64,000 bases of DNA from Heterodontus francisci (lineage: Eukaryota), in the NCBI RefSeq assembly GCF_036365525.1, contig NW_027140825.1, forward strand, positions 1,240,001-1,304,000, read 5' to 3'. Below are positions 1,206 to 62,095 of this stretch, piece after piece. The stretch's first letter is position 1. Each line of letters opens with the position of its first letter. Made by a program: the position numbers and the translations under genes. Below the pieces are notes generated by a model. That model saw nothing but the letters and a program-made list of their open reading frames with translations. It was not told the DNA's origin and ran no database searches.

Positions 1206-1819
1206 ATGTCTTTGTCTCAGCTCTGGGTTGTGTTGTTGGTGTTAACGGGTAAGGAGGTGTCTGAACTGTGAGGTGACAATGATGTACATGTGTCTCTGCT
1301 TCTCAGTCTCTGTCTGTCTTTGTCTCTCTCCTTCTCCCTCTATAATTCTTTCTCTGTCTCTCATTCTCTCTCTATCTCTCTCTCTGCCTTTATCTCTGCC
1401 TCCAACTGGTCCCCACCTCTCTCTTTATCTCTCTGTCTGCCCGCCTCTACCTCTTCTTGTTGATATCTTTATTGACATTGTCCTTGGGTTTATCTCCCTC
1501 GTTCCCTCTCTGTTTTACAGAAGTGGGGGCCGTGTTGATCCAACAGACTCCTGCTTCCATATCCCATTCCCCAGGATCTCCAGTCAGGATCCAGTGTATT
1601 TACACTGAAGCAACTGCTACGTCCTATTTCTACTGGTACCGGTGGCATCCGGACCGTGAGCCCGAGAATCTTTTCTATTCCTACCCCGCCGGAACGGTCA
1701 ACCCCTCCGGTGAGGTGGACGGTTTCACCACTAGGATACCCGACAACACCCATTTTTACCTGGAGTCCTCCAGCCTGTTGGCGAATCAATCAGCAGTGTA
1801 TTACTGTGCCTGGAGTCAG
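1206..1819 (+). CDS. TRBV: TCR beta-type V gene segment V1 (CAW/TRBV30-like clade); leader exon 1206-1248, V exon 1521-1819
   Basis: Leader MSLSQLWVVLLVLT with phase-1 GTAAG donor; acceptor TTTTACAG at 1520; V domain IQQTP..C..YWYR..YYCAWS followed directly by a 23-RSS. Confidence 0.92.
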
Positions 1820-1858
1820 CACAGTGACTCAGAAAGGCGCCGGAGTTCAGCAAAAACT
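1820..1858 (+). other. Recombination signal sequence, 23-bp spacer (V1)
   Basis: CACAGTG + 23 nt + GCAAAAACT. Confidence 0.95.
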
Positions 1859-3899
1859 CTAAACATTGACAGAACTCACTTATGGGAGATAGACCTGTCT
1901 ATCTGGGGTGTCATTCTATCACTCTGACTATCTGTCAGTTTCTATGTCTGCTGTTGAATGAACTGGCTCTTTGACAGAGTTGTCTGACTAGTTCCCATTC
2001 ACTGACTAGTTCTCCATTGCACTAATAAATCTCCCCTTCATCTACTTCTCCAATTGACATCTGGAAGTTACTATTGGATGGTCTTCCACCGCCCTTTCAG
2101 TCAGTGTCCTCCACATGATAACAATTCACTGAGGAGAAAGATTCCACTCATCTCCCACTCTGGTTCCTTTCCCAATTACCTTCAATTCTTGGTCCCTGGT
2201 TTATCGACCCTCCTGACAGTAGATACTACCCTCTGGATACAGTTTCTCTATCAAGACACTTCTGACCACATCTTGAAAATCTCCCCTTATCCTCATTACT
2301 CTAATGGACACAAGTCCATACAAATAGGAAATGGTTGATCTTGGAACCTTTAATCATGTCTCTGATGATTCATACAGTGCAAAGTCGAAACACCTCTCCA
2401 GATCCGTCTCTGACTGGAACACCTGCCTCCAGACGGCGGCTTCAGCATCTGTTCAAAACTGTTAACCCACTTGTCTCTCAGTCTCTCGGTGTCTTTTGAA
2501 GAATTTTCACAATGACTGGAGTTCAGTGCGGTGAAGAACTTAACCCTTTAGCTCCCGTTTAGCACAAGTGGGCGGGGGTGGGTGGGGAATGAAACTGTCT
2601 TGGATCTGAAACAAGGCAGCAGGCTGACGGGTCTTATTGGGTCATCGTGTCATGCAGGACAAATCCAGGCCATTCAGCCCATCGATCCAGGCCTGGCTGT
2701 TCGAAAGAGCGACCTCCTCCCATCTCTCTTCATCTTACCCTATCAACAGATTCTCCTATTCCTTTCTCACTCATGTATTTATTCAGCTCCCCCCTTAACA
2801 GTATTGTCTCTATTCGACCTCAACCCATTCCATTTGGTCTGTAATTCCACATTCTCACCGCTCCCTGGGTTAAAGAACCTCCTTCTGAATTCCCAATTGG
2901 ATTTATTAAGGACAACCTTACATTTATGATCCCTGGTTTTCATCTTCCCTGTCCAATTACTCCCACTCCCTGTTCTTTCTGAATAACCCTGCACTTGATC
3001 TTGCAGCTTGTCTGCCTCCTTCCCGACATTACAACAGTGACTGCACTTCAAAATGTATTTGACTGGTTGAGGCTTGAGTGAAGCAGAGAGATGTCGGGCC
3101 GAATGGCGCGGAAGAGTGCATTAACTTCCATCTGGTTCTATGCCACAAGCGCAAACGGGAGTCGAGTAGGAGGATAAAGCCAATGACTGATACAATTTTA
3201 GAGTCTGAGACTGAAACGCCTGCAGAATCGGTGCTTGCAGTTGCACGTGGAGCCACTAGGTGCCAGTGTTACTCCACTGTCGCCGCTGCCCACAACATGC
3301 TCAGACAGAGTGAACTTTACCCACAGCAGCTCTGCAGGTCAACTTGGCTGCTTCTGAAATGTTTCACTTCTCAACTATTTCACACAAAATATTCTGGCGA
3401 TGTCAAACAAATCAATGATTTGATATCAGGTAAATGAGCTTTAAATCTGATCCTTTTGGGGGCATTAAGTGACATTAATATCAGTCCAACCTTGAAATAG
3501 TTGCACCCAGATGCCAGTTTGCAGATTTCCAGTTTCTATTTTACAATTGCACTGTCCCAGGAGTTTATAGGAAACTAGGAGAGAGTCTGAATGTCCATCC
3601 TGACTTTAGCACAACTCCCACATCTATCGTGCCAAGTGTAAAGTAGCATTTTGCCCCCCATGCTCCCTGTTTCCAGGTGGAATAACGGGAGATCTGGTGC
3701 TCACTTCATGTGATCAAGTGAGAGACAGTTTTCAGAACAGAAGGCTTCACACTGACATGTTGTGATATCCTCACCCCGCCGGTCGAGGGGCTGTATTACT
3801 CAGGTCTGTTCATTGAGGAGGTGAAACTCAGTATGTTGAGGTTTTCAGAGCGGGTTTGCTTTTGCAGAATGGTGCAAAACAATAAATTAACCAGGAAGC

Positions 3900-5798: not shown

Positions 5799-6422
5799 AT
5801 GGCTGTCTCTCAGCTCTGGGTTGTGTTGTTGGTGTTAACGGGTAAGGAGGTGTCTGAACTGTGAGGTTACAATGATGTACATGTGTCTCTGCTTCTCAGT
5901 CTCTGTCTGTCTTTGTCTCTCTCCTTCTCCCTCTATATTTCTTTCTCTGTCTCTCATTCTCTCTCTCTCTCTCTCTTTGCCTTTATCTCTGCCTCTCTGC
6001 CTCTAACTGGTCCCCAGCGCTCTCTCTCTCTCTCTCTCTCTGCCCACTTCTACCTCTTCTTGTTTGTAACGATAGAGACAATGTCCCTGGGTAAATCTCT
6101 TTCTCTCTCTCTCTGTTTTACAGATGTGGGGGCCGTGTTGATCCAACAGACTCCCGCTTCCATATCCCATTCCCCAGGCTCTCCAGTCAGTATCCAGTGC
6201 GTTTACACAAAGGCAGATGTTGGCTCCTATTTCTACTGGTACCGGTGGCATCCAGACCGTGATCCCGAGAACCTTTTCTATTCCAACCTCGCTGGAACGG
6301 TCATTCCCTCTGGTGAGGTGGACGGTTTCACCGCCAGGAGACCCGACAACACCCATTTTTACCTGGAGTCCTCCAGCCTGTGGGCGAATCAATCAGCCGT
6401 GTATTACTGTGCCTGGAGACTG
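5799..6422 (+). CDS. TRBV: TCR beta-type V gene segment V2 (CAW/TRBV30-like clade); leader 5799-5841, V exon 6124-6422
   Basis: Leader MAVSQLWVVLLVLT, GT-AG phase-1 intron, open V exon ending YYCAWRL, 23-RSS. Confidence 0.92.
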
Positions 6423-6461
6423 CACAGTGACTCAGAAAGGCGCCGGAGTTCAGCAAAAACT
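6423..6461 (+). other. 23-RSS (V2)
   Basis: CACAGTG + 23 nt + GCAAAAACT. Confidence 0.95.
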
Positions 6462-7634: not shown

Positions 7635-8450
7635 ATGCAGTTAGTCAAACTCTTCCTAATCGTCTGTTCTCTTCTTCCATGTAGGTATTCATCGTTCATA
7701 AAGATACCTGTGCTAAAATAGATGCTGTGTTTTCATTCACTACTAACTTCTATCAAACTAGATTGATAAAACATCATTGAAGTCGATTTTCTGTCATTTC
7801 TTGAACTACATAACGTAATTTCACTGTAAATAATATTGGCTTAATGAAATTTTTGACTGAATGAAAGTTACTTATATATTCGTGACGCTACTACAGCTAT
7901 CTTTAACCGATAAGTTTGCCCTAATTCTGGGTTAATTTGTCTCTCTCATATCACTTGCTACATTATTTTTCAATCTCTATATCTATCTGTTTATTATCTA
8001 TATATCTACCAATATATCATTTAACTATATATTGTCTGCCTATATAGTTATCTAGTATTATCTACTTAACTATTTTGATAGTTATAGTTGGTTATCATAT
8101 GTCACAATATGTTCTAAACTTTTTAAACTATTCTCCTTATTTCTCAAGGCAAAACTCTAGCAGAGGTGATACACCAGTGGCCAACTCTGGTGGTGGTGAA
8201 TGGAAGTGAACCAGCAGAATTAAACTGTTCCCGGAATGACAGTAGAAAGAGCATTCTGCTGTGGTATCGGCAGTATGCCGGGCAGGGGCTCACCCTAATG
8301 GGTCATTCTTACACTGGAAGCTCACCCATTTACGAAGGAAGATTTGAGGAGGAGGTGAAGATTTTGAGGCACGAGGAGAGACGATGCAGCCTGAGGGTCC
8401 TCAAGGTGAAGGCTGTGGATGCGGCGGTGTATTACTGTGCAGCCAGGGAG
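7635..8450 (+). CDS. TRBV: TCR beta-type V gene segment V3; leader 7635-7680, V exon ~8149-8450
   Basis: Leader MQLVKLFLIVCSLLP with phase-1 GTAGGT donor; V exon VIHQWP..LNC..WYRQ..DAAVYYCAARE. An alternative in-phase acceptor exists at 8160. Confidence 0.9.
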
Positions 8451-8489
8451 CACAGCGCTGCAGACTGCCTTAATGCCAGTACAAAAACC
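8451..8489 (+). other. 23-RSS (V3)
   Basis: CACAGCG + 23 nt + consensus ACAAAAACC. Confidence 0.95.
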
Positions 8490-13557: not shown

Positions 13558-14263
13558 ATGCCTTTCAGTTTCATCGTCTTTGCTATTTCCCTTCTGGCGC
13601 TGAGTAGGTTAAAATTCTGTTCCAATCACTCTTCTACATTTGTTTAACTGAAAGGGATGATTAATGATCTCAATAAAACTGTGAAATTCAGCAATCAATC
13701 ATTTAATATAAGATAGTGAACTCTATCCCCTAGTCCCCTCGTTTGGGAAGATGATGTTAACTCTTTAATGTTTGCACCCACTTGCAAGCTTGTGGATTCC
13801 ACAATTCTATTTTACAGTTGTAAAGATCCAGGTTCTTGTAGGAAATTAGGACACAGACCGAATTTCCGTCATTAATTTGGTGCAACACCGACGTCCATCG
13901 TCTCAATTGTAACTCCATCGATACTAGTTCATTCCCTCTAATTTCTCTTTCTAGGTGTTTGCCGGGGTGATGTGATACATCAATGGCCTCAGTCACTGGC
14001 TGTTAAACAACCAGGACCCGTGGAAATGAACTGTCTGCAGATAGCAAAGATTCGCAACTCCATGGACTGGTATTGTCAGTCCCCCGGCAGAGGATTCCTG
14101 TTAATCGGGTTTAACTTTCTAAGCAATGAACCTCAGTATGAAGATGGTTTTAAGAGCGGGTTTGTTATTACCAGGACTCTGGACAATAAGAAATCCACTC
14201 TGACGATCGAGAGTGTGAACGCCACGGACGAGGCGGTGTATTTCTGTGCAGCTGGTGATGGGA
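13558..14263 (+). CDS. TRBV: TCR beta-type V gene segment V4; leader 13558-13603, V exon 13955-14263
   Basis: Leader MPFSFIVFAISLLAL, phase-1 intron, DVIHQWP..MNC..WYC..DEAVYFCAAGDG, 23-RSS. Confidence 0.9.
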
Positions 14264-14302
14264 CACAGCGGTTCAGAGTCATTGGCCGCCTTGACAAAAA
14301 CC
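14264..14302 (+). other. 23-RSS (V4)
   Basis: CACAGCG + 23 nt + ACAAAAACC. Confidence 0.95.
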
Positions 14303-18077: not shown

Positions 18078-18883
18078 ATGGAATTCAAACTCCTGCTCTG
18101 GGCCTTTTCATTGCTGATGCCGCGTAAGTAACTTCAGAATGCTACTATTGTTTCATTTAACGTGAGTTTCTTTAAGAAATACACTTACTGATCCGTATGT
18201 AATATCGTTCATTGATGTTGTCATTGTCCCCTTCATATAGAAACAGACATTGAGTTACTTTGCACTGATATTTGCTTCTATAACCGGTGCATGATCTGCC
18301 AGACAGGACCTCACTCTTATTCTTAGAAAACTGGAATAAATTACATTTAAAACTAAATTGAGATGAGAAAAGTTGGGGAATGAACTCATTGCATAGCTTT
18401 TTCAAAGAGCTAGCACAGGCCTGCTAGGATGAACGGCCTCCTTCACATGTTGGATGATTGTCTGAGCTCATATTCGATCAGAAAATGCACTGGGATGCAC
18501 TGCAGACTTTTCCTGATGTGGCTGCGTTAACTGAATCTTGGACCCTTTCCTTTCTTCCTCCCTTCCCACTACCCTAGATTGTTGTCGATGTGCCTCAGTG
18601 TCCCAGACACCCAGTGAACTGACTGTGGGACATGGGGAGAGCGCAACACTGACCTGTCAGCAGAAGGACACGGAGCACATCACCATGCTCTGGTACCGCC
18701 AGCACCACGGGCAAGGCCCCCAGCTTCTGGTGACGGACGTGTCTGGGAGCAAGCCTACTTTCCAGGAAGAGTTCGAGAGGCGATTCGAGGTGGTGAGAGC
18801 TGACATTCAAAGGAGCACTCTGAAAATTCAGACTGCAGGCCCCGGAGATAGGGCGATGTATTACTGCGCCGCCACTGAAGGAG
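18078..18883 (+). CDS. TRBV: TCR beta-type V gene segment V5; leader 18078-18123, V exon 18578-18883
   Basis: Leader MEFKLLLWAFSLLMP with phase-1 GTAAGT donor; SVSQTP..LTCQQ..MLWYRQ..DRAMYYCAATEG; 23-RSS. Confidence 0.92.
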
Positions 18884-18922
18884 CACAATGCTTCAAACCC
18901 CTTCCACACTATGACAATAACC
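18884..18922 (+). other. 23-RSS (V5)
   Basis: CACAATG + 23 nt + ACAATAACC. Confidence 0.9.
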
Positions 18923-19953: not shown

Positions 19954-20687
19954 ATGCCTTTCAGTTTCATCGTCTTTGTTATTTCCCTTCTGGGGCTGAG
20001 TAGGTTAAAATTCTGTCCCAATCACTCTTCTACATTTGATCAACTGAAAGGGATGATTAATGATCTTAATAAAACTCAGCGGTGGTGACTTGTGAAATCA
20101 GTAATCGATTATTTCATACAAGACAGTGAACTCATTAATCTGTCCCCTAGTTTGGGAAGACAAGTGTTATTAATATGATGTTAACTCTTTAATGTTTGCA
20201 CCCACTTGCAAACTTGTGGATTCCACAATTCTATTTTACATTTGTAAAGATCCAGGTGCTTGTCGGAAATTAGGACACAGACCGAATTTCCGTCGTTAAT
20301 TTGGTGCAACACCAACGTCCATCGTCGCAATTGTAACTCCATCGATACTAGTTCATTCCCTCTAATTTCTCTTTCTAGGTGTTTGCCGGGGTGATGTGAT
20401 ACATCAATGGCCTCAGTCACTGGCTGTTAAACAACCAGGATCAGTGGAAATGAACTGTCTGCAGAAAGGAAAGATTCGCGACTACATGTACTGGTATCGT
20501 CAGTCCCCCGGCAGAGGATTCCTGTTAATCGGGTTTAACTTTCTAAGCAATGAACCTCAGTATGAAGAGGGTTTTAAGAGCGGGTTTGTTATTAGCAGGA
20601 CTCTGGACAATAAGAAATCCACTCTGACGATGGAGAGTGTGAACGCCACGGACGAGGCGGTGTATTTCTGTGCAGCTGGTGATGGGA
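19954..20687 (+). CDS. TRBV: TCR beta-type V gene segment V6; leader 19954-19999, V exon 20379-20687
   Basis: Leader MPFSFIVFVISLLGL; V exon with canonical MYWYRQ and DEAVYFCAAGDG; 23-RSS. Confidence 0.92.
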
Positions 20688-20726
20688 CACAGCGGTTCAG
20701 AGTCATTGGCCGCCTTGACAAAAACC
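20688..20726 (+). other. 23-RSS (V6)
   Basis: CACAGCG + 23 nt + ACAAAAACC. Confidence 0.95.
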
Positions 20727-23940: not shown

Positions 23941-23956
23941 AAGACTAAATAAATAC

Positions 23957-24064
23957 AACTTCAAACTGGAGACCTCCAGCCTGCGGGAGAATCACTCGGC
24001 CGTGTATTTCTGTGCCTGGAGAGATCACAGTGACTCAGAGAGATGGAGCAGTTCAACAAAAAAA
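23957..24064 (+). pseudogene. 5'-truncated V pseudogene (V8 paralog) retaining its 23-RSS at 24026-24064
   Basis: NFKLETSSLRENHSAVYFCAWRD then CACAGTG + 23 nt + ACAAAAAAA; the upstream V sequence is replaced by CR1. Confidence 0.9.
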
Positions 24065-25156: not shown

Positions 25157-25609
25157 ATGAATCTGTTACTGGGTCTGATAATCCTGTTTCATTGTAAGTG
25201 AGTGTGAAATACAAAAACTATCGTTAATAACTTTCCTCTCTTCTCCCTGTCTCCCTTTCATTCCCAGAAGTTTCCTGTTTACTGATCTGCTCTTCTCTCC
25301 ATCTCTCTCCCAGATGTGAACTCACAGACTATCCACCAGACTCCCGCCGCTGTCTCCAGATTGCGTGGAGAGGCAGTGGAACTGAGGTGCACATTGGAGG
25401 GCACCAGTACTGCTAGAATGTACTGGTACAGACAATACCCGGGGAAGGAGCCGCTGTTGATGTTTTACTCCAGTACTGCTAACTATGTAGATCCAGAGGG
25501 GACGGTGGGCGGTTTCACCGCCGAGAGACCAACTGACTCCCAGTTCAACCTTGAGTCCTCCAGCCTGCGGGAGAATCACTCGGCCGTGTATTTCTGTGCC
25601 TGGAGTCTT
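25157..25609 (+). CDS. TRBV: TCR beta V gene segment V8, strongly TRBV30-like; leader 25157-25193, V exon 25314-25609
   Basis: Leader MNLLLGLIILFH, GTAAGT donor, 120-nt intron; SQTIHQTPA..CTLEGTS..YWYRQ..MFYS..AERPTDSQF.L..CAWS; consensus 23-RSS. Confidence 0.93.
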
Positions 25610-25648
25610 CACAGTGACTCAGAGAGATGGAGCAGTTCAACAAAAACC
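25610..25648 (+). other. 23-RSS (V8), perfect consensus
   Basis: CACAGTG + 23 nt + ACAAAAACC. Confidence 0.97.
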
Positions 25649-27510: not shown

Positions 27511-29450
27511 AGTATCTGCACCCCGTGCAGATACTATAATAACAGACCCACTCAGTGACTCTCCCTGTGGAGATATTATAATAACAGACCCACTCAGTGA
27601 ATCTCCCAGTGGAGTCGGTCTGTTATTAGTGTATCTCCAAAGGGAGAGTCACTGAGTGCGTCTGTTGTTATAGTATCTCCACAAGGAGAGTCACTGAGTG
27701 GGTATGTTATTATAGTATTTCCACAGTGAGAGTCACTTTGTGGGTCTGTTATTATTGCATCTCCACAGGGAGAGTGAATGATTGTGTCTGTTATTATTGC
27801 ATCTCCACAGGGAGAGTCACTGTGTCTCTCTGTAATTATTGTATCTCAACTGGGACATTCATTGAGTGGGTCTGTTCTTATACTATCACCACAGGCAGTG
27901 TCAGTGAGTGGATCTGAAATTACAGTGTCTCCACAGTGAGAGTCACTGAGTGGGTCTGTTATTATAATATCTCCACAAGGAGGGTCACTGAGTTGGTCTG
28001 TTATTATAGTATCTCCTGAGGGAGAGTCTCTGAGTGCGGCTGTTATTATAGTATCTCCGCAGGGATGGTGAATGATTATGTCTGTTATTATAGTATCTCA
28101 AGTGGGAGAGTCAGTAAGTGTCTCTGTTGTTGTAGTATCTCCACAGGGAGAGTCACTGTGTGAATCTGTTTCTTTAGCATCTGCACAGGGGGAGCCACTG
28201 AGTGGGTCTGTTTTTGTATTATCTACACAGGGAGAGTCACTGAGTCTCTCTGGTATTATAGTATCTCCACAGGGAGACTGAATTATTGTGTCTGTTATTA
28301 TAGAATCTCCGCAGGGAGAGTCACTGAGTTGGTCTGTTATTATAGTATCTCCACAGGGAGTGTTTCTGAGTGGATCTGTTATTATAGTATCTCCACAGGG
28401 AGAGTGTATGATTGTGTCTCTTATTATAGTACCTCCTCGCGGAGAGTCATTGAGTGGGTCTGTTATTATAGTATCTCCACAGGGAGAGAAACTGAGTGTG
28501 TCTGTTATTATGGTATCTCCAGTGGGAGTGTCACTGAGTGTCTCTGGTATTACAGTATCTCCACAGGGAGAGTTAATGATTATGTCTGTTATTGCAGTCT
28601 CTGCACAGGGAGAGTCACTGAGTCGGTCAGTTATTATAGTATCTCCACAGGGAGAGTCACTGATTGGGTCTGTTATTATAGTATCTCCACAGGGAGAGTC
28701 ACTGAGTCGGTCTGTTATTATAGTATCTCCACAGAGAGAGTCACTGAGTGGGTCTGTTATTATAGTATCTCCACAGGGAGAGTCACTGAGTGGGTCTGTT
28801 ATTATTGCATCTCCACGAGGGGAGTCACTGTGTCGGTCTGCAATTATAGTATCTCAACTGGGACAATCATTGAGTGGGTCTGTTGCTGTCGCATGTCCAC
28901 AGGGAGAGTCACTGAGTGGGTCTGTTATTACACTATCTCCACAGGGAGAGTCACTGAGTGGGTCTGTTATTATAGTATATCCACAAGGAGAGTCACTGAG
29001 TTGCACTGTTATTATAGTATCTCCACAAGGAGTGTCACTGAGTTGGTCTGTTATTATCGTATCTCCACAGGGAGAGTTACTGAGTGGGTCTGTAAATATC
29101 GTATCTCAACTGGGACAATCATTGAGTGGGTCTGTTCTTAAACTATCACCACAAGGAGAGTCAGTGAGTAGATCTGAAATTGCAGTATCTCCACAGGGAG
29201 ATTCACTGAGTGCGTCTGTAATCATAGTATCTCGACAGGGAGAGTCACCGAGTGAGTCTGTTATTATAGTATCGTTAGAGAGAGAGTCTGTGAGTGTGTC
29301 TGTTATTATAGTATCTCCACTGGGAGAGCTACTGAGTGGGTCTGTTATCATAGCATCTCCACAAAGGAGAGTGACTGAGTGGGTCTGTTATTATAGTATC
29401 TCCGCAGGGAGTGTCTCTGTGTGGTTCTCTTATTATTGTATCTCCACCGT
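27511..29450. repeat. 42-bp minisatellite (~45 copies), first ~2 units inverted
   Basis: Unit ATCTCCACAGGGAGAGTCACTGAGTGGGTCTGTTATTATAGT; gives 14-aa periodic ORFs. Confidence 0.95.
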
Positions 29451-34284: not shown

Positions 34285-34765
34285 CGCCCTCCACTTTATA
34301 CGTAGAGCGAGAGCTCCCTCCACTTTATACGTAGAGAGGGAGCTCACTGCACTGTATACATAGAGAGGGAGCTCGCTCTACTGCATACGTACAGAGGGTG
34401 CTCACTCCAGTTTATACGTAGAGAGGGAGCTGCCTCCACTTTATACATAGAGAGGGAGCTGCCTCCACTTTATACGTAGAGGGGGAGCTCCCACTATTTT
34501 ATTCATAGAGGGGGAGCTCGCTCCAATTTATACATAGAGAGGGTGCTCCCTAAACTATATACATAGAGAGGGAGTTCCCTCCTCTTTATACATAGAGAGG
34601 AAGCTCCCTCCATTTAAGACATAGAGAATGAGCTCCCTCCACTTTATACATAGAGAGGGAGCTCCCTGCACTTGAAACAAAGAGAGGGAGCTTCCTCCAC
34701 TGTATACATACAGAGGGAGCTCTCTCCACTTTATGCAGAGAGAGGGAGCTCCCTCTATTTTATAC
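34285..34765. repeat. 29-bp minisatellite (~16 copies) with internal palindrome GAGGGAGCTCCCTC
   Basis: Unit CACTTTATACATAGAGAGGGAGCTCCCTC, head to tail. Confidence 0.93.
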
Positions 34766-35423
34766 AGCTGCCAAGGTGAGTTTTGAACCCTGTCCCCAGC
34801 ACATCAGGTTGGGCCTCTGGATTACTTGAGCAGTGATATTATCAATATGCGACTGCCTCCCTAATGGCTGTGTACAGTGTCTGACCCCCAATATCACCCA
34901 CAGTAGTTTCTGGGCTGTAACCCTGAACACTGTCCTGAATCAGATCCACAAAGTTCACATTTTAACTGGGGAAAAGACAGGAACAGAGTGAAACGTAATT
35001 GCTTTTGTCCCTGGATTCAGTGTCCACTGCAGACAGATCAGTTACATTTACAACAGAAATGCCAGGAGTGAATAAGGTCAATACAATAATATGGCAAATA
35101 TAAATGACGCCTCTCATAATTGTAGCATCCGTGCAGTATGAGGACGGTTTTCAGGTTCATTCCCGAGAGAGGCCTTACAAAGAAAATGTCATTGACATTG
35201 AAATGATTGTGTTTTATCCACCACATTATTTACATCAGCATCAAAGCTGCTGATGTAATGTGTTTGTTGAGGTGAGTATAACTAATAGCAATGATTAGGA
35301 GTATCACCGTGTCAGTGGAGACTTATCCCCTGTATAAATTAGGACCCAATGGATTGGATCAGCTCAGAGTGCCTGGTGGAGCTGTGGATTCCAGGCTAAT
35401 AGAAGCCTCTGCTTCTCACAGGA

Positions 35424-51092: not shown

Positions 51093-54000
51093 CCTTCCCC
51101 ATCTCTCTCTCCCCCTCTATCTCCCTCTCCCCCTCTATCTCCCTCGCCCCCCTCTATCGCCCTCTCCCCTCTATCTCCCTCTCCCTCTTGATCTCCCTCT
51201 CCCCCTTGATCTCCCTCTCTCCCCTCAATCTCCCTCTCCCCCCTCGATTTCCCTCTCCCCCCTCGATCTCCCTCTCCCCCCTCGATCTCCCTCGGCCCAT
51301 CCATCTCACTCTCCCCCTCTATCTCCCTCTCCCGCTCTCTCTGCCTCTCCCCCTCTATCTACCCCTCTATCTCCCTCTCCCCCTCTAANNNNNNNNNNNN
51401 NNNNNNNNNNNNNNNNNNNNNNNNNNNNNNNNNNNNNNNNNNNNNNNNNNNNNNNNNNNNNNNNNNNNNNNNNNNNNNNNNNNNNNNNNNNNNNNNNNNN
51501 NNNNNNNNNNNNNNNNNNNNNNNNNCTCCCCCCTCTATCTACCCCACTATCTCCCTCTCCCCCTCTAGCTCTTTCTCCCCACTCTCTCTCCCTCTCCCCT
51601 CTTTCTCCCTCCCCCTCTCTCCCTCCCCCTCTCTCTCCCACTCCCCCCTCTCTCTCCCCTTTCTCTCTCTCTCCCCCTTTCTCTCTCTCTCCCCTTTCTC
51701 TCCCTCGCCCCCTCTCCCGCCCTCTCCCCCTCTCTCGCCCTCTCCCCCTCTCTCGCCCTCTCCCCCTCTCACCCCTTCTCACCCCTCTCTCACCCCCTCT
51801 CACTCCCTCTCACCCCCTCTCTCTCCCTCTCCCCTCTCTTTCATCCCCTCCCCCTCTCTCTCTCCCCTCTCTCTCTCCCCCTCTCTCTCTCCCCCCTCTC
51901 TCTCTCCCCCATCACTCTCTTCCCCCTCTATCTCTCTCTGCCCCCTCTATATCTCTCTTCCCCCTCTATCTCTCTCTCTTCCCCTACAACTCTTTCTCCC
52001 CATCTCTCTCTGTCGTTGTCTTTCGCTATCACTGTCTCTGTCTCTCTCTCTCACTGACGCTCCCTTTCTCTCTGTTTCTTTCTGTGTCTCTATCTCTCTC
52101 TTTCTGTCTTTCTCTCTCTCTCTGACTCTCTCTCTCTCTCTCTCTTTCATTCTCTGTTACTCTTTCGCTCTTTGCTTCTGTCCATGACTCTATTTGTGTC
52201 TCTCTCGCACCATCTCTGCCATTCTCTCTCTGTATCTCTCTCTCTCACTGTCTCTGTATCTTCCTCTCAGTATCTCTGTCTCCCTCTCTATTTCTACCGC
52301 TTCCTCTCAGTCTCTCTCTCTCTGTCCCTCCATCTGTCTTTCCCTCCCTGTCACTCCATCTCTCTCCTTCTCTCTCTGTCCCTCCATCTGTCTTTCCCTC
52401 CCTGTCACTCCCTTTCCTTCTGTTTCTGTCTCTCCCTCTCTCTCTGTCTCTCCCTCTCTCCCTCTCTTTCACTGCCTCTGTCCATAACTCTGTCTGTGTC
52501 TCTATGACACCATTTCTCCCTTTCTGTTTCCCCGTCTCTCTTTCTTTTCATCTCTCCCTTCCTCCCTCGCTCCCAATAGAGCAATGGTTTCAACCATATT
52601 TCCTTCTTTCTTTACCCCTCCCTCTCTGTCCCTCTCTCTCCTTCTATCTCTGCCTCTGCCTCTCTCTCTGTATCCCTCAGTCCCTCCATCTGTCTTTACC
52701 TCTCTGTCACTCCCATCTCTCCTTCTATCTCTGCCTCACTCTCTTTCTATCCCTCCATCTGCCCTTCCATTCCTGTCAATCCCCCTCACTCCTTCTCTCT
52801 CTGACTCTCTCTCTCTGTCCCTCCATCTGTCCTTCCCTCCCTGTCACTCCGTCTCTCTCCTTCTATCTCTGTCTCTCTCTCTGTCCCTCCATCTGTCTTT
52901 CCCTCCCTGACACTCCCTCTCTCTCCTTCTATCTCTGTCTCTCTCTGTCCCTCCATCTGTCTTTCCCTCCCTGACACTCCCTCTCTCTCTTTCTATCTCT
53001 GCCTCTCTCTGTCCCTCCATCTGTCTTTCACTCTCTGTCTCTCCCACTCTCTCCTTCTATCTATCGCTCTCTCTCTGTCCCTCCATCTGTCTTTCCCTCT
53101 CTGTCTCACCCCCTCTCTCCTTCTATCTCTCCCTCTCTCTCTGTCCCGCCATCTGTCCTTCCCTCCCTGACACTCCATTTCTCTCCTTCTATCTCTGTCT
53201 CTCACTCTATCCCTCCATCTGCCTTTCCCTCCCTGTCACTCCATCTCTCTCCTTGTCTCTCTATCTCGCACTCTATCCCTCCATCTGTCCTTCTCTCCCT
53301 GTCACTCCATCTCTCTCCTTCTATCTCTGTGTCTCTCTCTCTCTGTCCCTCCATCTATCTTTCCCTCTCCATCTCTCCCTCTCTCTCCTTCTCTCTCTGT
53401 CTCTCTCTCTGTCTCACCATCTGTCTTCCCATCCCCGTCACTCACTCTCTCTCCTATCTATATCTCTGTCTCTCTCTCTTTCCCTCCATCTGTCTTTCTC
53501 TCCCTGATACTCCCTCTCTCTCCTTCCCTCTCTGTCTTTCTTTATGTCGCTCCATTTGTCTTTCCCTGCCAGTCACTCCCTCTCTCTCATTCTATCTCAT
53601 CTCTCTCACTGACGCTCCCTTTCTGTCTGTTTCTTTCTGTGTCTCTATCTCTCTCTTTCTGTCTGTCTCTCTCTCTCTCTGACTCTCTCTCTCTCTCTCT
53701 GTTACTCTCTCTCTCTCTGTGCTTCTGTCCATGACTCTATTTGTGTCTCTCTCACACCATCTCTGCCTTTCTCTCTCTCTATCTCACTCTCTCACTGTCT
53801 CTTTATCTTCCTCTCCATATCTCTGTCTCCCTTTCTATTTCTACCTCTTCCTCTCTGTTTCTCTCTGTCCCTCCATCTGTCTTTCGCTCCCTGTCACTCC
53901 ATCTCTCTCCTTCTCTCTCTGCCCCTCCATCTGTCTTTCCCTCCCCGTCACTCCCTCTCTCTCCTTCTATCTCTGTCTCTCCCTCTTTCTCTCTCTCTGT

Positions 54001-57000
54001 CTCTCCCTCTCTCCCTCTCTTTCACTGCCTCTGTCCATAACTCTGTCTGTGTCTCTATGACACCATTTCTCCCTTTCTGTTTCCCCGTCTCTCTTTCTTT
54101 TCATCTCTCCCTTCCTCCCTCGCTCCCAATACAGCAATGGTTTCAACCATATTTCCTTCTTTCTTGATCCCTCCCTCTATGTCCCTCTCTCTCCTTCTAT
54201 CTCTGTCTCTTCCTCTCTCTCTGTATCCCTCAGTCCCTCCATCTATCTTTACCTCTCTGTCACTCCCTCTCTCTCCTTCTATCTCTGCCTCTCTCTCTTT
54301 CTATCCCTCCATCTGCCCTTCCATTCCTGTCAATCTCCCTCACTCCTTCTCTCTCTGTCTCTCTCTCTCTGTCCCTCCATCTGTCCTTCCCTCCCTGTCA
54401 CTCCGTCTCTCTCCTTCTATCTCTGTCTCTCTCTGTCCCTCCATCTGTCTTTCCCTCTCTGTCTCTCCCACTCTCTCCTTCTATCTATCGCTCTCTCTCT
54501 GTCCCTCCATCTGTATTTCCCTCTCTGTCTCACCCCCTCTCTCCTTCTATCTATCGCTCTCTCTCTGTCCCTCCATCTGTATTTCCCTCTCTGTCTCACC
54601 CCCTCTCTCATTCCATCTCTGCCTCTCACTCTCGGTCTCTCCATCTGTCTTTCCATCTCTGTCTCTCCATCTCTCTCCTTCTCTCTCTCTCTGTCTCTTC
54701 ATCTGTCTCCCCCCCCACATCGTCACTCCCTCTTTCTCCTTCTAACTCTGTCTCTGCCTCGCTCTCTGTCTCTCTCTCTATCCCTCCATCTGTCCTTCCC
54801 TCCCTGTCACTCCATCTCTCTCCTTCTCTCTCTGTCTCTCTCTCTGTCCCTCCATCTGTCTTTCCCTCCCTGACACTCCCTCTCTCTCTCCTTCTATCTC
54901 TGTCTCTCTCTATCCCTCCATCTGTCTTTCCCTCTCTGTCTCTCCCTCTCTCTCCTTCTATCTCTCCCTCTCTCTCTGTCCCGCCATCTGTCTTTCCCTC
55001 CCTGACACTCCCTCTCTCTCCCTTTTTTCTCTGTCTCTCTCTCTCTGTCCCTGCATCTGTCTTTCCCTCCCTGACACTCCCTCTCTCTTCTTCTCTCTCT
55101 GTCTCTCTCTCTGTCCCTCCATCTGTCTTTCCCTCCCTGACACTCCCTCTCTCTCCTTCTATCTCTGTCTCTCTCTATCCCTCCATCTGTCTTTCCCTCT
55201 CTGTCTCTCCCTCTCTCTCCTTCTATCTCTCCCTCTCTCTCTGTCCCGCCATCTGTCTTTCCCTCCCTGACACTCCCTCTCTCTCCCTTTTTTCTCTGTC
55301 TCTCTCTCTGTCTGTCCATCTGTCTTTCCCTACCTGTGACTCCCTCACTGCTTGCATCTCTGCCTCTCTCTCTCTTTCTCTCCATCTGTCTTTCACTCTG
55401 TCTCTCCCACTCTCTCCTTCTCTCTCTGTCACTCCATCAGTCTCGCCGCTCCCGCCCCCACCATCACCCGATCTCTCTCCTTCTCTCTCTGCCTCTCTCT
55501 CTGTCCCTCCATCTGTCCTTCCCTCCCTGTCACTCCATCTCTCTCCTTCTCTCTCTGCCTCTCTCTCTGTCCCTCCATCTGTCTTTCCCTCCCTGACACT
55601 CCCTCTCTCTCCTTCTATCTCTGTCTCTCTCTATCCCTCCAACAGTCTTCCCCTCTCTGTGACTCCCTCTCTCTCCTTCCATGTGTCTTTCTCTCTCTCT
55701 CTGTCTCTCCACCTGCCTTTCCCTCCCTGACACTACCTCTCTCCCCTTCTATCTCTCTCTCTCTCTCTCTATCCCTCCATCAGTCCTTCCCTCCCTGTCA
55801 CTCCATCTCTCTCCTTCTCGCTCTGTCTCCCACTCTGTCGCTCCATCTGCCTTTCCCTTCCTGACACACCACCTCTCTCCTTCTCTCTCTGTCTCTCACT
55901 CTGTCCCTCCATCTGTCTTTCCCACCCAGACACACCCTCTCTCTCATCTATCTCTGTCTCTCACTCCATCCCTCCATCTGTCCTTCCCTCCCTGTTACTC
56001 CATCTCTCTCCTTCTATCGCTGTCTCTCTCTCTCTCTGTCCCTCCATCTGTCCTTCCCTCCCTGTCACTCCATCTCTCTCCTTCTATCTATCTCTCTCTC
56101 TCTCTCTGTCCCTCCATCTGTCTTTCCCTTTCAGTCCCTCCCTCTCTCTCCTTCTATCTCTGTATCTCTCTCTCTCTGCCCCTCCATCTGTCCTTCCCTC
56201 CCTGTCACTCCATCTCTCTCCTTCTCTCCGTCTCTCTCACTCTGTCCCTACATCTGTCTTTCTCTCCCTGACACTCCCTCTCTCTCCTTCCATCTCTGCC
56301 TCTCACTCTCTGTCCCTCCAACAGTCTTTCCCTCTCTGTGACTCCCTCTCTCTCCTTCTCTCTCTGTCTTTCTATCTGTCGCTCCATCTATCTTTCCCTG
56401 CCTGTCACTCCCTCTCTCTCATTTCATCTCTGCCTCTCACTCTCTGTCCCTCCATCTGTCCTTCCCTCCCAGTCACTCCATCTCTCTCCTTCTCTCTCTG
56501 TCTCTCACTCTGTCCCTCCATCTGTCCTTTCCTTCCTGGCAATCCCTCTCTTTCCTTCTATCTCTGTCTCTGCCACTCTCTCTGTCTCTCTCTCTCTGTC
56601 CCTCCATCTGTCTTTCCCTCTCTGTCTCTCCGTCTCTCTATCCCACCATCTGTCCTTCCCTCCCTGTCACTCCCCCTCTCTCCTTCTCTCTCTGTCTCTC
56701 TCTCTCTGTCTCTCCATCTGTCTTCCCCTCCCCGTCACACCCTCTCTCTCCTTCTATCTCTATCTCTGTCTCTCTCTCTGTCCCTCCACTTCTCTTTCCC
56801 GCCCTGTCACTCCCACTGTCTGCTTCTATCTCTGTCTCTCTCTCTCAATCCCTCCATCTGCCCTTCCCTCCCTGTCACACCCTCTCTGTCCTTCTCTCTC
56901 TGTCTTTCTCTCTGTCTCTCCATCTGTCTTTCCCTGCCTGTAACTCCATCTCTCACCTTCCATCACTGCCTCTCACTCTCTGTCTCTCCATATCTCTCCT

Positions 57001-60000
57001 TCTATCTCTGTCTCTCTCTCTCTGTCCCTCCATCTGTCTTCTCCCCCCCTCCGTCACGCCATCTCTCTGCTTCTATCTCTGTCTCTCTCCCTCTGTCCCT
57101 CCATCTGTCCTTCCCTCATTGTCACTACATCTCTCTCCTTCTATCTCTCTCACTCCCTCTCTTACCCTCCATCTGTCTTTCCCTCTCTGTCCCTCCCTCT
57201 CTCTCCTTCTATCACTGTCTCTATCTCTCTGTCTCTCCATCTGCCCTTCCCTCTTTGACACTCCCTCTCTCTCCTTCTCTCTCTGTCTTTCTATCTGTCG
57301 CTCCATCTGTCCTTCCCTCCCAGTCACTCCATCTCTCTCCTTCTCTCCGTCTCTCTCTCTCTGTCTCTCCATCTGTCTTCCCCACCCCCTGTCACTCACT
57401 CTCACTCCTTTTATCTCTATCTCTGTCTCTCTCTCTGTCCCTCCATCTATATTACCCTCTCTGTCACTCCCACCCTCTCCTTCTATCTCTCTCCCTCACA
57501 CTCTGTCCCTCCATCTGTCTTTCTCTCCCTGACACTCCCTCTCTCTCCTTCCATCTCTGCCTCTCACTCTCTGTCTCTCCATCTGTCTTTCCCTCTCTGT
57601 CTCTCCATCTCTCTCCTTCTCTCTCTCTCTGTCTCTTCATCTGTCTCCCCCCCCACCCCGTCACTCCCTCTTTCTCTTTCTAACTCTGTCTCTGCCTCGC
57701 TCTCTGTCTCTCTCTCTATCCCTCCATCTGTCCTTCCCTCCCTGTCACTCCATCTCTCTCCTTCTCTCTCTGCCTCTCACTCTATCCCTCCATCTGTCTT
57801 CCCCTCCGCGTCACACCCTCTCTCTCCTTCTATCTCTATCCCTGTCTATCTCTCTGTCCCTCCACTTCTCTTTCCCTCCCTGTCACACCCACTCTCTGCT
57901 TCTATCTCTGTCTCTCTCTCTCAATCCCTCCATCTATCCTTCCCTCCCTGTCACACCCTCTCACTCCTTCTCGCTCTGTCTCTCTCTCTGGCTCTCCATC
58001 TGTCTTTCCCTGCCTGTCACTCCCTCTCTCACCTTCCATCACGGCCTCTCACTCTCTGTCTCTCCAACTCTCTTTCCCTCTCTATCTCTGCATATCTTTC
58101 CTTCTATCTCTGTCTCTCTCCCTCTGTCCCTCCATCTGTCCTTCCCTCATTGTCACTCCATCTCTCTCCTTCTATCTCTCTCTCTTTCCCTCCATCTGTC
58201 TTTCCCTCTCTGTCCCTCCCTCTCTCTCCTTCTATCTCTGTCTCTCTCTCTATCCCTCCATCTGCCATTCCCTCCCTGAAACTCCCTCTCTTTCCTTGCC
58301 TCTCTGTCTCTCACTCTATCCCTCCATCGTCCTTCCCACACTGTCACTCCATCTCTCTCCTTCTATCGCTGTCTCTCTCTCTCTCTCTCTGTCCCTCCAT
58401 CTGTCCTTCCTTCCCTGTCACTCCATCTCTCTCCTTCTATCTATCTATCTCTCTCTCTCTCTGTCCCTCCATCTGTCTTCCCTCTCAGTCCCACCCTCTC
58501 TCTCCTTCTATCTCTGTATCTCTCTCTCTGCCCCTCCATCTGTCCTTCCCTCCCTCTCACTCCATCTCTCTCCTTCTCTCCGTCTCTCTCACTCTGTCCC
58601 TACATCTGTCTTTCCCTCCCTGACACTCCCTCTCTCTCCTTCCATCTCTGCCTCTCACTCTCTGTCCCTCCATCTGTCCTTCCCTCCCCCTCACTCCATC
58701 TCTCTCCTTCTCTCCGTCTCTCTCTCTCTGTCTCTCCATCTGTCTTCCCCACCCCCTGTCACTCACTCTCACTCCTTTTATCTCTATCTCTGTCTCTCTC
58801 TCTGTCCCTCCATCTATATTACCCTCTCTGTCACTCCCACCCTCTTCTTCTATCTCTCTCCCTCACACTCTGTCCCTCCATCTGTCTTTCTCTCCCTGAC
58901 ACTCCCTCTCTCTCCTTCCATCTCTGCCTCTCACTCTCTGTCTCTCCATCTGTCTTTCCCTCTCTGTCTCTCCATCTCTCTCCTTCTCTCTCTCTCTGTC
59001 TCTTCATCTGTCTCCCCCCCACCCCGTCACCCCCTCTTTCTCTTTCTAACTCTGTCTCTGCCTCGCTCTCTGTCTCTCTCTCTATCCCTCCATCTGTCCT
59101 TCCCTCCCTGTCACATCATCTCTCTCCTTCTCTCTCTGCCTCTCACTCTATCCCTCCATCTGTCTTCCCCTCCGCGTCACACCCTCTCTCTCCTTCTATC
59201 TCTATCCCTGTCTATCTCTCTGTCCCTCCACTTCTCTTTCCCTCCCTGTCACACCCACTCTCTGCTTCTATCTCTGTCTCTCTCTCTCAATCCCTCCATC
59301 TATCCTTCCCTCCCTGTCACACCCTCTCTCTCCTTCTCGCTCTGTCTCTCTCTCTGGCTCTCCATCTGTCTTTCCCTGCCTGTCACTCCCTCTCTCACCT
59401 TCCATCACGGCCTCTCACTCTCTGTCTCTCCAACTCTCTTTCCCTCTCTATCTCTGCATATCTTTCCTTCTATCTCTGTCTCTCTCCCTCTGTCCCTCCA
59501 TCTGTCCTTCCCTCATTGTCACTCCATCTCTCTCCTTCTATCTCTCTCTCTTTCCCTCCATCTGTCTTTCCCTCTCTGTCCCTCCCTCTCTCTCCTTCTA
59601 TCTCTGTCTCTCTCTCTATCCCTCCATCTGCCATTCCCTCCCTGAAACTCCCTCTCTTTCCTTGCCTCTCTGTCTCTCACTCTATCCTTCCATCGTCCTT
59701 CCCACACTGTCACTCCATCTCTCTCCTTCTATCGCTGTCTCTCTCTCTCTCTCTCTGTCCCTCCATCTGTCCTTCCTTCCCTGTCACTCCATCTCTCTCC
59801 TTCTATCTATCTATCTCTCTCTCTCTCTGTCCCTCCATCTGTCTTCCCTCTCAGTCCCACCCTCTCTCTCCTTCTATCTCTGTATCTCTCTCTCTGCCCC
59901 TCCATCTGTCCTTCCCTCCCTCTCACTCCATCTCTCTCCTTCTCTCCGTCTCTCTCACTCTGTCCCTACATCTGTCTTTCTCTCCCTGACACTCCCTCTC

Positions 60001-62095
60001 TCTCCTTCCATCTCTGCCTCTCACTCTCTGTCCCTCCATCTGTCCTTCCCTCCCCCTCACTCCATCTCTCTCCTTCTCTCCGTCTCTCTCTCTCTGTCTC
60101 TCCATCTGTCTTTCCCACCCCCTGTCACTCACTCTCTCTCCTTTTATCTCTATCTCTGTCTCTCTCTCTGTCCCTCCATCTGTATTACCCTCTCTGTCAC
60201 TCCCACCCTCTCCTTCTATCTCTCTCCCTCACACACTGGCCCTCCATCTGTCTTTCTCTCCCTGACACTCCCTCTCTGTACTTCTCTCTCTGTCTTTCTC
60301 TCTGTCTCTCCATCTGTATTTCCCTCTCTGTCTCTCCATCTCTCTCCTTCTCTCTCTCTCACTGTCTCACCATCTGTCTCCCCCCCCACCTCGTCACTCC
60401 CTCTTTCTCCTTCTAACTCTGTCTCTGTCTCTCTCTCTCTATCCCTCCATCTGTCCTTCCCTCCCTGTCACACCCTCTCTGTCCTTCTCTCTCTGTCTTT
60501 CTCTCTGTCTCTCCATCTGTCTTTCCCTGCCTGTCACTGCATCTCTCACCTTCCATCACGGCCTCTCACTCTCTGTCTCTCCATCTCTCTTTCCCTCTCT
60601 GTCTCTCCATATCTCTCCTTCTGTCTCTGTCTCTCTCTCTCTCTGTCCCTCCATCTGTCTTCTCCCCCCCCCCCTCCGTCACTCCATCTCTCTCCTTCTA
60701 TCTCTGTCTCTCTCCCTCTGTCCCTCCATCTGTCCTTCCCTCATTGTCACTCCATCTCTCTCCTTCTATTTCTCTCACTCTCTCTCTTACCCTCCATCTG
60801 TCTTTCCCTCTCTGTCCCTCCCTCTCTCTCCTTCCATCACTGTCTCTATCTCTCTGTCTCTCCATCTGCCCTTCCCTCTTTGACACTCCCTCTCTCTCCT
60901 TGTCTCTCTGTCTCTCACTCTATCCCTCCATATGTCCTTCCCTCCCTGACACTCCCTCTCTCTCCTTCTCTCTCTGTCTTTCTATCTGTCGCTCCATCTA
61001 TCTTTCCCTGCCAGTCACTCCATCTCTCTCCATCTCTCCGTCTCTCTCTCTCTGTCTCTCCATCTGTCTTTCCCACCCCCTGTCACTCACTCTCACTCCT
61101 TTTATCTCTATATCTGTCTCTCTCTCTGTCCCTCCATCTGTATTACCCTCTGTGTCACTCCCACCCTCTCCTTCTATCTCTCTCCCTCACATTCTGTCCC
61201 TCCATCTGTCTTTCTCTCCCTGACACTCCCTCTCTCTCCTTCTCTCTCTGTCTTCCTCTCTGTCTCTCCATCTGTCTTTCCCTGCCTGTCACGCCATCTC
61301 TCTCCTTCCATCTCTGCCTCTCATTCTCTGTCTCTCCATCTGTCTTTGCCTCCCTGTCTCTCCATCTCTCTCCTTCTCTCTCTCTCTGTCTCTTCATCTG
61401 TCTCCCTCCACCACCCCGTCACTCCCTCTGTCTCCTTCTAACTCTGTCTCTGTCTCGCTCTCTGTCTCTCTCTCTATCCCTCCATCTGTCCTTCCCTCCC
61501 TGTCACTCCATCTCTCTCCTTCTCTCTCTGTCTCTCACTCTGTCTCTCCATCTGTCCTTTCCTTCCTGGCAATCCCTCTCTTTCCTTCTATTTCTGTCTC
61601 TGCCACTCTCTCTGTCTCTCTCTCTGTCCCTCCATCTGTCTTTCCCTCTCTGTCTCTCCGTCTCTCTATCCCTCCATCTATCCTTCCCTCCCTGTCACTC
61701 CATCTCTCTCCTTCTCTCTCTGTCTCTCTCTCTGTCCCTCAATTTGTCTTTCCCTTCCTGATACTCGCTCGCTCTCCTTCTATCTTTGTCTCTGCCACTC
61801 TCTCTGTCTCTCTGTATGGCCCTCCATCTGTCATTCCCTTTCTGTCTTTCCGTCTCTCTCCTGCTATCTCTGTCTCTGCCTCTCTCTCTGTGTCTCTCTC
61901 TGTCCCTCCAGCTATCATTCCCTCTCTGTCACTCCCTCTCTCCTTCTCTTTGTCTGTCCCTCTCTCTCCTTCTCTCTCTCCTTCTCTCTCTCTCTTTACC
62001 CCCCTATCACTCCTTGCCCTATCTCTCTGTCGCTGAGACTCTCTATATCTCTCCCCCTCTATCTCTCTCTGTCCCTCGTTCTCTCTGTCTTTATT
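51093..62095. repeat. ~11-kb polypyrimidine (CT-rich) cryptic satellite with higher-order duplications
   Basis: Recurring CTGTCCCTCCATCTGTCTTTCCCTCCCTGTCACTCC core; 1366-bp offset duplication (58150 vs 59516). Confidence 0.95.

Follow-up and report, generated by a model that had tools for sequence, protein, structure and literature searches.

In mammals, the V segment that lies inverted 3′ of the T-cell receptor beta (TRB) constant gene is described in the opossum paper as orthologous across species (PMC2275272). According to passages of a more recent squamate study, inverted V segments form a weakly supported clade that extends to salmonids and some amphibians, with non-inverted members in the axolotl, and the V segments of TCR-epsilon are the sister of this inverted-TRBV clade (PMC11754216). 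The newt locus is presented as six C-J-D units with three inverted V clusters, expressed, and one divergent C, and the same source regards multiple inverted V segments as common outside mammals (PMC12698447). Among fishes, a supplementary table lists for the bamboo shark (C. punctatum) two opposite D-J-C units with 15 inverted V segments 3′ of each C, and for the bichir five V-D-J-C units whose C genes all lie on the same strand (Giorgetti 2023, PMC10322711 supplementary file 16). Shark TCR loci are described as translocons in a review (PMC6795676). A map of the horn shark (Heterodontus francisci) TRB locus, or a tail-to-tail second C-beta gene, was not found in a literature search that lay mostly outside subscription journals. 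Rast and Litman reportedly suggested in 1994 that the horn shark has several C-beta genes.

The window considered here is a 64-kb stretch of horn shark DNA (C779:1240001-1304000 of assembly G000, contig NW_027140825.1); bare positions below are those of the window, and prefixed positions those of the contig. A six-frame and RSS scan finds in it seven full V exons and one fragment, all on the plus strand and each with a 23-RSS (starting at 1820, 6423, 8451, 14264, 18884, 20688, 24026 and 25610). Along the window the order is CAW, CAW, V3, V4, V5, V6, a CAW fragment and again CAW, so that V segments ending in CAW are interleaved with other families on a single strand, as a first-pass annotation had stated. 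The last of them, V8, has a leader exon at 25157..25193 (ATG at 25157, GT donor in the sequence), an intact, stop-free V exon at 25314..25609 that we assign to the TRBV30 (CAW) lineage below, and a 23-RSS at 25610..25648 (CACAGTG-23-ACAAAAACC) with perfect heptamer and nonamer. The motifs for which V8 had been singled out are present, as are the cysteine, tryptophan and cysteine of a V domain, the leader intron and the 3′ RSS.

The remaining segments, likewise on the plus strand and given with their 23-RSS, are V1 (1526..1858, the aligned part of the exon) and V2 (6129..6461; 90% identical to V1 in nucleotides), which form a second subgroup of the CAW lineage; V3 (8154..8489), V4 (13966..14302) and V5 (18589..18922), of other TRBV families; V6 (20390..20726), a tandem duplicate of V4; and V7 (23942..24064), a 5′-truncated fragment of V8 type that retains only the 3′ end of the exon, is 88% identical to V8, and recurs with the same truncation at C779:1016k and 1329k. 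V1, V2 and the V7 fragment (around 23957) share the CAW end and the spacer ends ACTCAGA...AGTTCA, as the annotation had noted. Its count of at least four copies holds for CAW pieces, of which one is a mere 3′ exon fragment and the others do not make one subgroup: the IMGT subgroup threshold is 75% nucleotide identity, and V1 and V2 are only 58-59% identical to V8. The pairs V1/V2 and V4/V6 both derive from recent tandem duplications (1-1949/4594-6554 and 12894-17313/19299-23485), whose duplicated stretches are 90-93% alike.

Beyond 26 kb no V segment was found in the window; that half holds tandem repeats, including minisatellites at 27612-29447 (42-bp x 44) and 34287-34766 (29-bp x 17) and, at 51526-62090, a CT-rich array of 10 kb whose period is 66 bp. 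The scan of the window detected no J segment flanked by an RSS, and the single FGxGT match has no adjoining RSS. CTCF-like motifs, matched to a general consensus without a control, occur at 3253, 26826 and 39955; by the same uncontrolled consensus, the strand of the motifs agrees with that of the V segments in blocks A, B and E of the array and is mixed in the window's block (22 plus, 20 minus).

The window's V segments are TCR-beta V genes, with D-beta, J-beta and C-beta linked to them on the same contig. Among PDB matches to a single domain, V8 scores best with the beta V domain of the Mel5 receptor (1.3e-18), followed by a TCR alpha V domain (3.4e-12). We take the Mel5 domain to be TRBV30, and its aligned letters agree with rows named TRBV30. 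A D-beta-like pattern search matched the same contigs as the V family. Beyond the window, on the minus strand, lie a working C-beta exon 1 (C779:1375118-1375465), 17 J motif matches (about C779:1380376-1394935) and a D-beta segment with 12- and 23-RSS (C779:1395466-1395478); there is also a decayed J (C779:1375550-1375610, minus), in frame with and just ahead of the C exon. TCR beta chains are the top single-stretch PDB matches of this exon, and its identity to TCR-beta records named Heterodontus francisci, one of them titled 'T-cell receptor homolog', is 99-100%. A genome scan with the Pfam C1-set domain placed no TRB contig among its best 150 matches, a list crowded by matches on large contigs.

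Four runs, whose type was guessed to be RNA and none of which is on record as such, provide splices and a junction that are not assignable to V8 itself. The GT..AG joint between the V8 leader and V exon (25193>25314) occurs in two of the four (X1 and X5); two of the four have C exon 1 spliced onto exon 2, and one has it spliced to a J. In one X5 contig a CAW-type V end runs into a J of the array, an identification made at family level. The J form at this junction is present in two of the three mapped units (DJC1 and DJC3) and not in DJC2. Full-length chains with a V8-like V are represented by four multi-V gene models and no cDNA.

By similarity and phylogeny, the CAW segments V8, V1 and V2 very probably have their affinity with the TRBV30 lineage. 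V8 is 44% identical (80 bits) to the human TRBV30 record P0182, with which the human motifs quoted in the first-pass annotation agree, and it is the best-scoring of nine shark representatives for the human and mouse V30-type rows. Its mean score is 78 bits against V30-type rows, 56 against TRAV8/9-like rows and 51 against other TRBV. A HMMER search seeded with V8 gave 1109 matches at E 0.001, of which the best 150 were listed and 20 of those looked up; among these 20, close single-V rows come from catshark, manta, sturgeon, gar, reedfish, mormyrid, newt, turtle and an equid cluster, those of the reedfish and the equid cluster being named TRBV30. For the trees, 417 extracted V domains were thinned to 152, joined by 14 shark rows and divided into hand-picked subsets; the reference rows come from the V8-seeded search rather than from IMGT, no row is identified as chicken, and the alignment spans only about 97 columns. 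The 'bony V30-type' group was named after a first quick tree, and most of its non-mammalian members carry no TRBV30 label.

In the TRBV-only tree of 46 rows, nine cartilaginous-fish CAW and 13 bony V30-type rows form a clade against 24 others (99/97), and V3-V6 group with other TRBVs. A 74-row tree recovers the clade at 96/95 with one long unrelated row inside. When four long rows are dropped (70 rows), a TRAV8/9-like pair is nested within CAW plus V30 (51/94); with six TRAV8/9-like rows (64 rows), these join the TRA rows, and CAW and V30 are left unresolved at the TRBV base. Thus, with TRA/Ig outgroups the clade is lost in two of three IQ-TREE trees, and support falls in two of four overall. 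A placement of the CAW segments as TRAV8/9-like was considered and rejected: the attraction reached only 47-51 bootstrap with two such rows and was gone with six, and the context is a beta locus.

It is conceivable, if decidedly improbable, that the TRBV30 likeness is retained primitive similarity, the CAW segments being a slow basal grade near TRAV8/9-like genes rather than part of a clade, and that inverted 3′ V segments arose separately in sharks. The 70- and 64-row trees fit such a view, as does the second-best score of V8, against TRAV8/9-like rows rather than other TRBV; additionally, all V families and not CAW alone are inverted, and local inverted duplications are common in the array. 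The mean score of V8 against V30-type rows speaks for a clade with TRBV30 instead, as do the strong clade among TRBVs and the likelihoods of the 64-row set itself, where a constrained CAW plus V30 clade exceeds the free tree by 5.0 lnL (p-AU 0.59). An all-shark TRBV clade is rejected in the same set (AU test p 0.007). Because V8, V1 and V2 group with bony-vertebrate TRBV30, the TRBV30 lineage is likely older than the shark/bony vertebrate split, as had been proposed.

About 23 D-J-C-beta units make up the locus. Instead of one V array ahead of few D-J-C, the assembly contains 23 D segments (control 0) and 23 full-length J-block matches among 42 rows (94-100% identity, mostly 94-98% to the query), in both orientations and with V arrays between them, along with 21 working (type A) C-beta exons; D, J and type A C-beta units occur on six contigs, with up to six on one. 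Most of these units could be assembly duplicates from uncollapsed haplotypes, a reading that we regard as very improbable indeed. The array is spread over seven contigs of 0.3-2.0 Mb, none chromosome-scale, the type A exons are 99-100% alike, and flank identity reaches 99.8% within one trio and within one pair, all of which would be expected of such duplicates. The predominant level of J-block identity and the presence of six units on a single contig point the other way, and J counts differ among the mapped units (19/17/21). Clustered at 99% identity, the flanks of 22 loci yield 19 groups, so a few units at most are duplicated by assembly. Beside this, C exon 1 is more uniform over the 21 units than the J blocks or the flanks of the dead cassettes described below (mostly 85-97%), which suggests strong purifying selection or gene conversion on C.

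Each unit pairs V(n)-D-J(n)-C-beta(A) with an opposing dead J-C-beta(B) and with a second V array that points inward; the window belongs to one of these second arrays. The about 23 units, each with its dead second C-beta, lay outside what the first-pass annotation had seen. Along C779:1010001-1666570, a V(+) block, a dead C(+), a C-J-D(-) and a V(-) block are followed by the window's V(+) block, a dead C(+), a C-J-D(-) and a V(-) block, and then by a 120-kb gap, a V(+) block and a D-J-C(+). The D-J-C unit nearest to V8, which that annotation had asked to be located and oriented, lies 110-130 kb past V8 on the same contig and on the opposite strand, with the window's V block 3′ of its C. The window's V segments therefore have the position of TRBV30/31, inverted and 3′ of C-beta. 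TRBV30/31 is characteristically flanked by EPHB6 and trypsinogen genes; no trypsin-like exon was recognised among motif matches in 656 kb of the array, whose ends lie outside that stretch.

The V8-like segment is not a single copy at the locus end here: V8-like matches number at least 150 on seven contigs. Classed relative to the nearest J block, the best 150 of 1497 candidates comprise 88 inverted 3′, 49 direct 5′, 10 inverted 5′ and one direct 3′, with two on J-less contigs, and copies of 98-99% identity occur in both orientation classes. Being single is a mammalian trait and not a lineage trait of TRBV30/31. The annotation had suggested that the solitary inverted position of TRBV30 may be derived, or that the whole block may recombine by inversion; the second option would fit the geometry. 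The solitary state does look derived, because the lineage has at least 150 matches in this genome and other sharks and rays also carry several copies; the inversion does not. Co-orientation with other families, offered as a sign that the inversion is derived, is no argument against an inverted position, because the whole block, all families included, is inverted 3′ of the nearest working C-beta.

Three further observations concern the V arrays. A CAASD V family, the type found in the horn shark 'T-cell receptor homolog' (P0224), occupies only the D-nearest position of 5′ blocks (4/4; C779:1116435, 1405536, 1623746 and 1626649), and other families occur on both sides. Stretches that mirror each other around DJC2 contain, at C779:1199726 and 1426066, an intact V that carries a 23-RSS, groups with Ig/TRA-side outgroups and not with TRBV, and adjoins a decayed V ending in CGAH. 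A lone intact CAW-type V at C779:1315049 lies on the minus strand inside a plus block, after a 50-kb V-free stretch, and possibly marks a duplication junction.

Our main reading, to which we give a probability of roughly 0.7, is that V8, V1 and V2 are TRBV30-lineage shark TRBV segments that lie inverted 3′ of the nearest working D-J-C-beta and would be joined to it by inversion. Inversion is the established outcome when a V 23-RSS recombines with a D 12-RSS in such an arrangement. RAG would join the 23-RSS of a V such as V8 to the 12-RSS of the D it faces across C, 130 kb away, and flip J-C; the away-pointing D lies at 159 kb and the next D on the same strand at 370 kb. Such use of the facing unit is, in our estimation, fairly likely. 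On the same anatomy, the window's V segments might instead be joined chiefly by deletion to the next D-J-C on their own strand, with excision of the opposite unit between. DJC3 lies on the plus strand, co-oriented with these V segments, and the sole junction seen, in X5, fits a J of the DJC1/DJC3 type; no transcript ties an inverted V to the adjacent J. This deletion would span nearly three times the distance, with 23 nearer direct V segments ahead of DJC3, and single-unit amniote loci can use a 3′ V only by inversion. In the bamboo shark, each inverted array has the orientation of the other unit's C gene (PMC10322711 supplementary file 16), which would suit deletion. Taken together, predominant use by deletion appears rather unlikely.

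The mapped loci are consistent with comparable preservation on both sides of C. Of 97 V-like loci, two fall in neither class; CAW-lineage segments account for 30/46 in 3′ blocks and 28/49 in 5′ blocks, and intact V segments for 29/46 in inverted 3′ blocks versus 30/49 in direct 5′ blocks. These equal fractions may come from recent duplication instead of use.

The second C-beta-like gene, on the V strand, separates each working C from the last of the inward V segments. In the window's unit the broken gene (type B) spans C779:1359147-1362234, with a relic J ahead of it at C779:1355594-1355713, both on the plus strand. The assembly holds 24 type B copies, and each type A gene with enough flank (18/18, three at contig ends left out) faces one 16-20 kb away. 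Of the 22 copies examined, every one is broken and preceded by one or more relic J segments. Within 8-11 kb upstream, no D-like motif was found at 22 loci, and no J RSS within three mismatches at 20 loci. Extra dead copies without an adjoining working C occur at C2233:402k, C1675:395k, C407:320k and C407:1362k, about 42-44 kb deeper in V arrays. An intact type B counterpart, with a V8-like V and a J, exists in the automatic gene model P0022 (not a transcript) of Scyliorhinus torazame and is 35-36% identical to type A. Because type A proteins are also present in five other shark genera plus Scyliorhinus, the two types likely diverged early in sharks or before. An Atlas search with type B returned beta-constant look-alikes only, and no tie to TCR-epsilon.

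This dead second C, facing the same way as the inverted V segments, may show how the backwards layout arose. The type B cassette may once have served the inward V segments directly, its decay leaving them 'inverted'; later segmental and inverted duplications would have spread all V families to both sides of C, and mammals would have retained a single lineage member. More broadly, the inverted 3′ TRBV30 of mammals could be the final remnant of a second V-(D)-J-C-beta unit, arranged tail-to-tail with the main one in the jawed-vertebrate ancestor. Sharks would then keep its constant gene as type B and amniotes only its V, squamate TCR-epsilon might be a moved survivor, and the horn shark would have multiplied the paired unit about 23-fold. 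We offer this last proposal tentatively, as unlikely but not far-fetched. If it is true, a T-cell locus must solve exclusion across dozens of C-beta units. Both allelic and unit exclusion are directly testable, because the J blocks differ enough to be distinguished, and the type B cassette offers a testable origin for the TRBV30 inversion. The TRBV30 lineage, and probably its inverted 3′ position as well, would date from before the shark/bony vertebrate split, earlier than the salmonid and amphibian record given in the squamate study (PMC11754216).

Set against the described systems, the horn shark locus shares its V lineage, the CAW end, the 23-RSS and the inverted 3′ position with human TRBV30, mouse TRBV31, opossum TRBV28 and the amniote 3′-inverted clade as described (PMC2275272, PMC11754216), and differs in its at least 150 matches, their presence on both sides of C, the mixture of families and the dead, co-oriented C-beta in front of them. 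The bamboo shark likewise has inverted 3′ V segments, but two units as opposed to about 23 and no second divergent C in the published table, where its V families are not placed against TRBV30. Bichir and newt have repeated units and several inverted 3′ V segments; their units are far fewer, the bichir C genes all share one strand, and the pertinent passages describe no tail-to-tail pseudo-C. Squamate TCR-epsilon (TRE) is comparable to the type B cassette as a second beta-like V-D-J-C whose V segments are sister to the 3′-inverted TRBVs, but it forms a separate, functional locus that its authors consider squamate-specific (PMC11754216). An array of about 23 TCR-beta units contradicts the view, in the review cited at the outset, of shark TCR loci as single translocons (PMC6795676), and resembles the shark Ig clusters in its many repeated, self-contained units; an Ig cluster, however, is V-D-D-J, whereas each horn shark TRB unit amounts to a small translocon of its own, containing tens of V and 17-21 J segments. 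The bamboo shark, bichir and newt descriptions already include inverted 3′ V arrays and repeated TRB units; what is new here is the count of 23 units and the regular, tail-to-tail relic C-beta.
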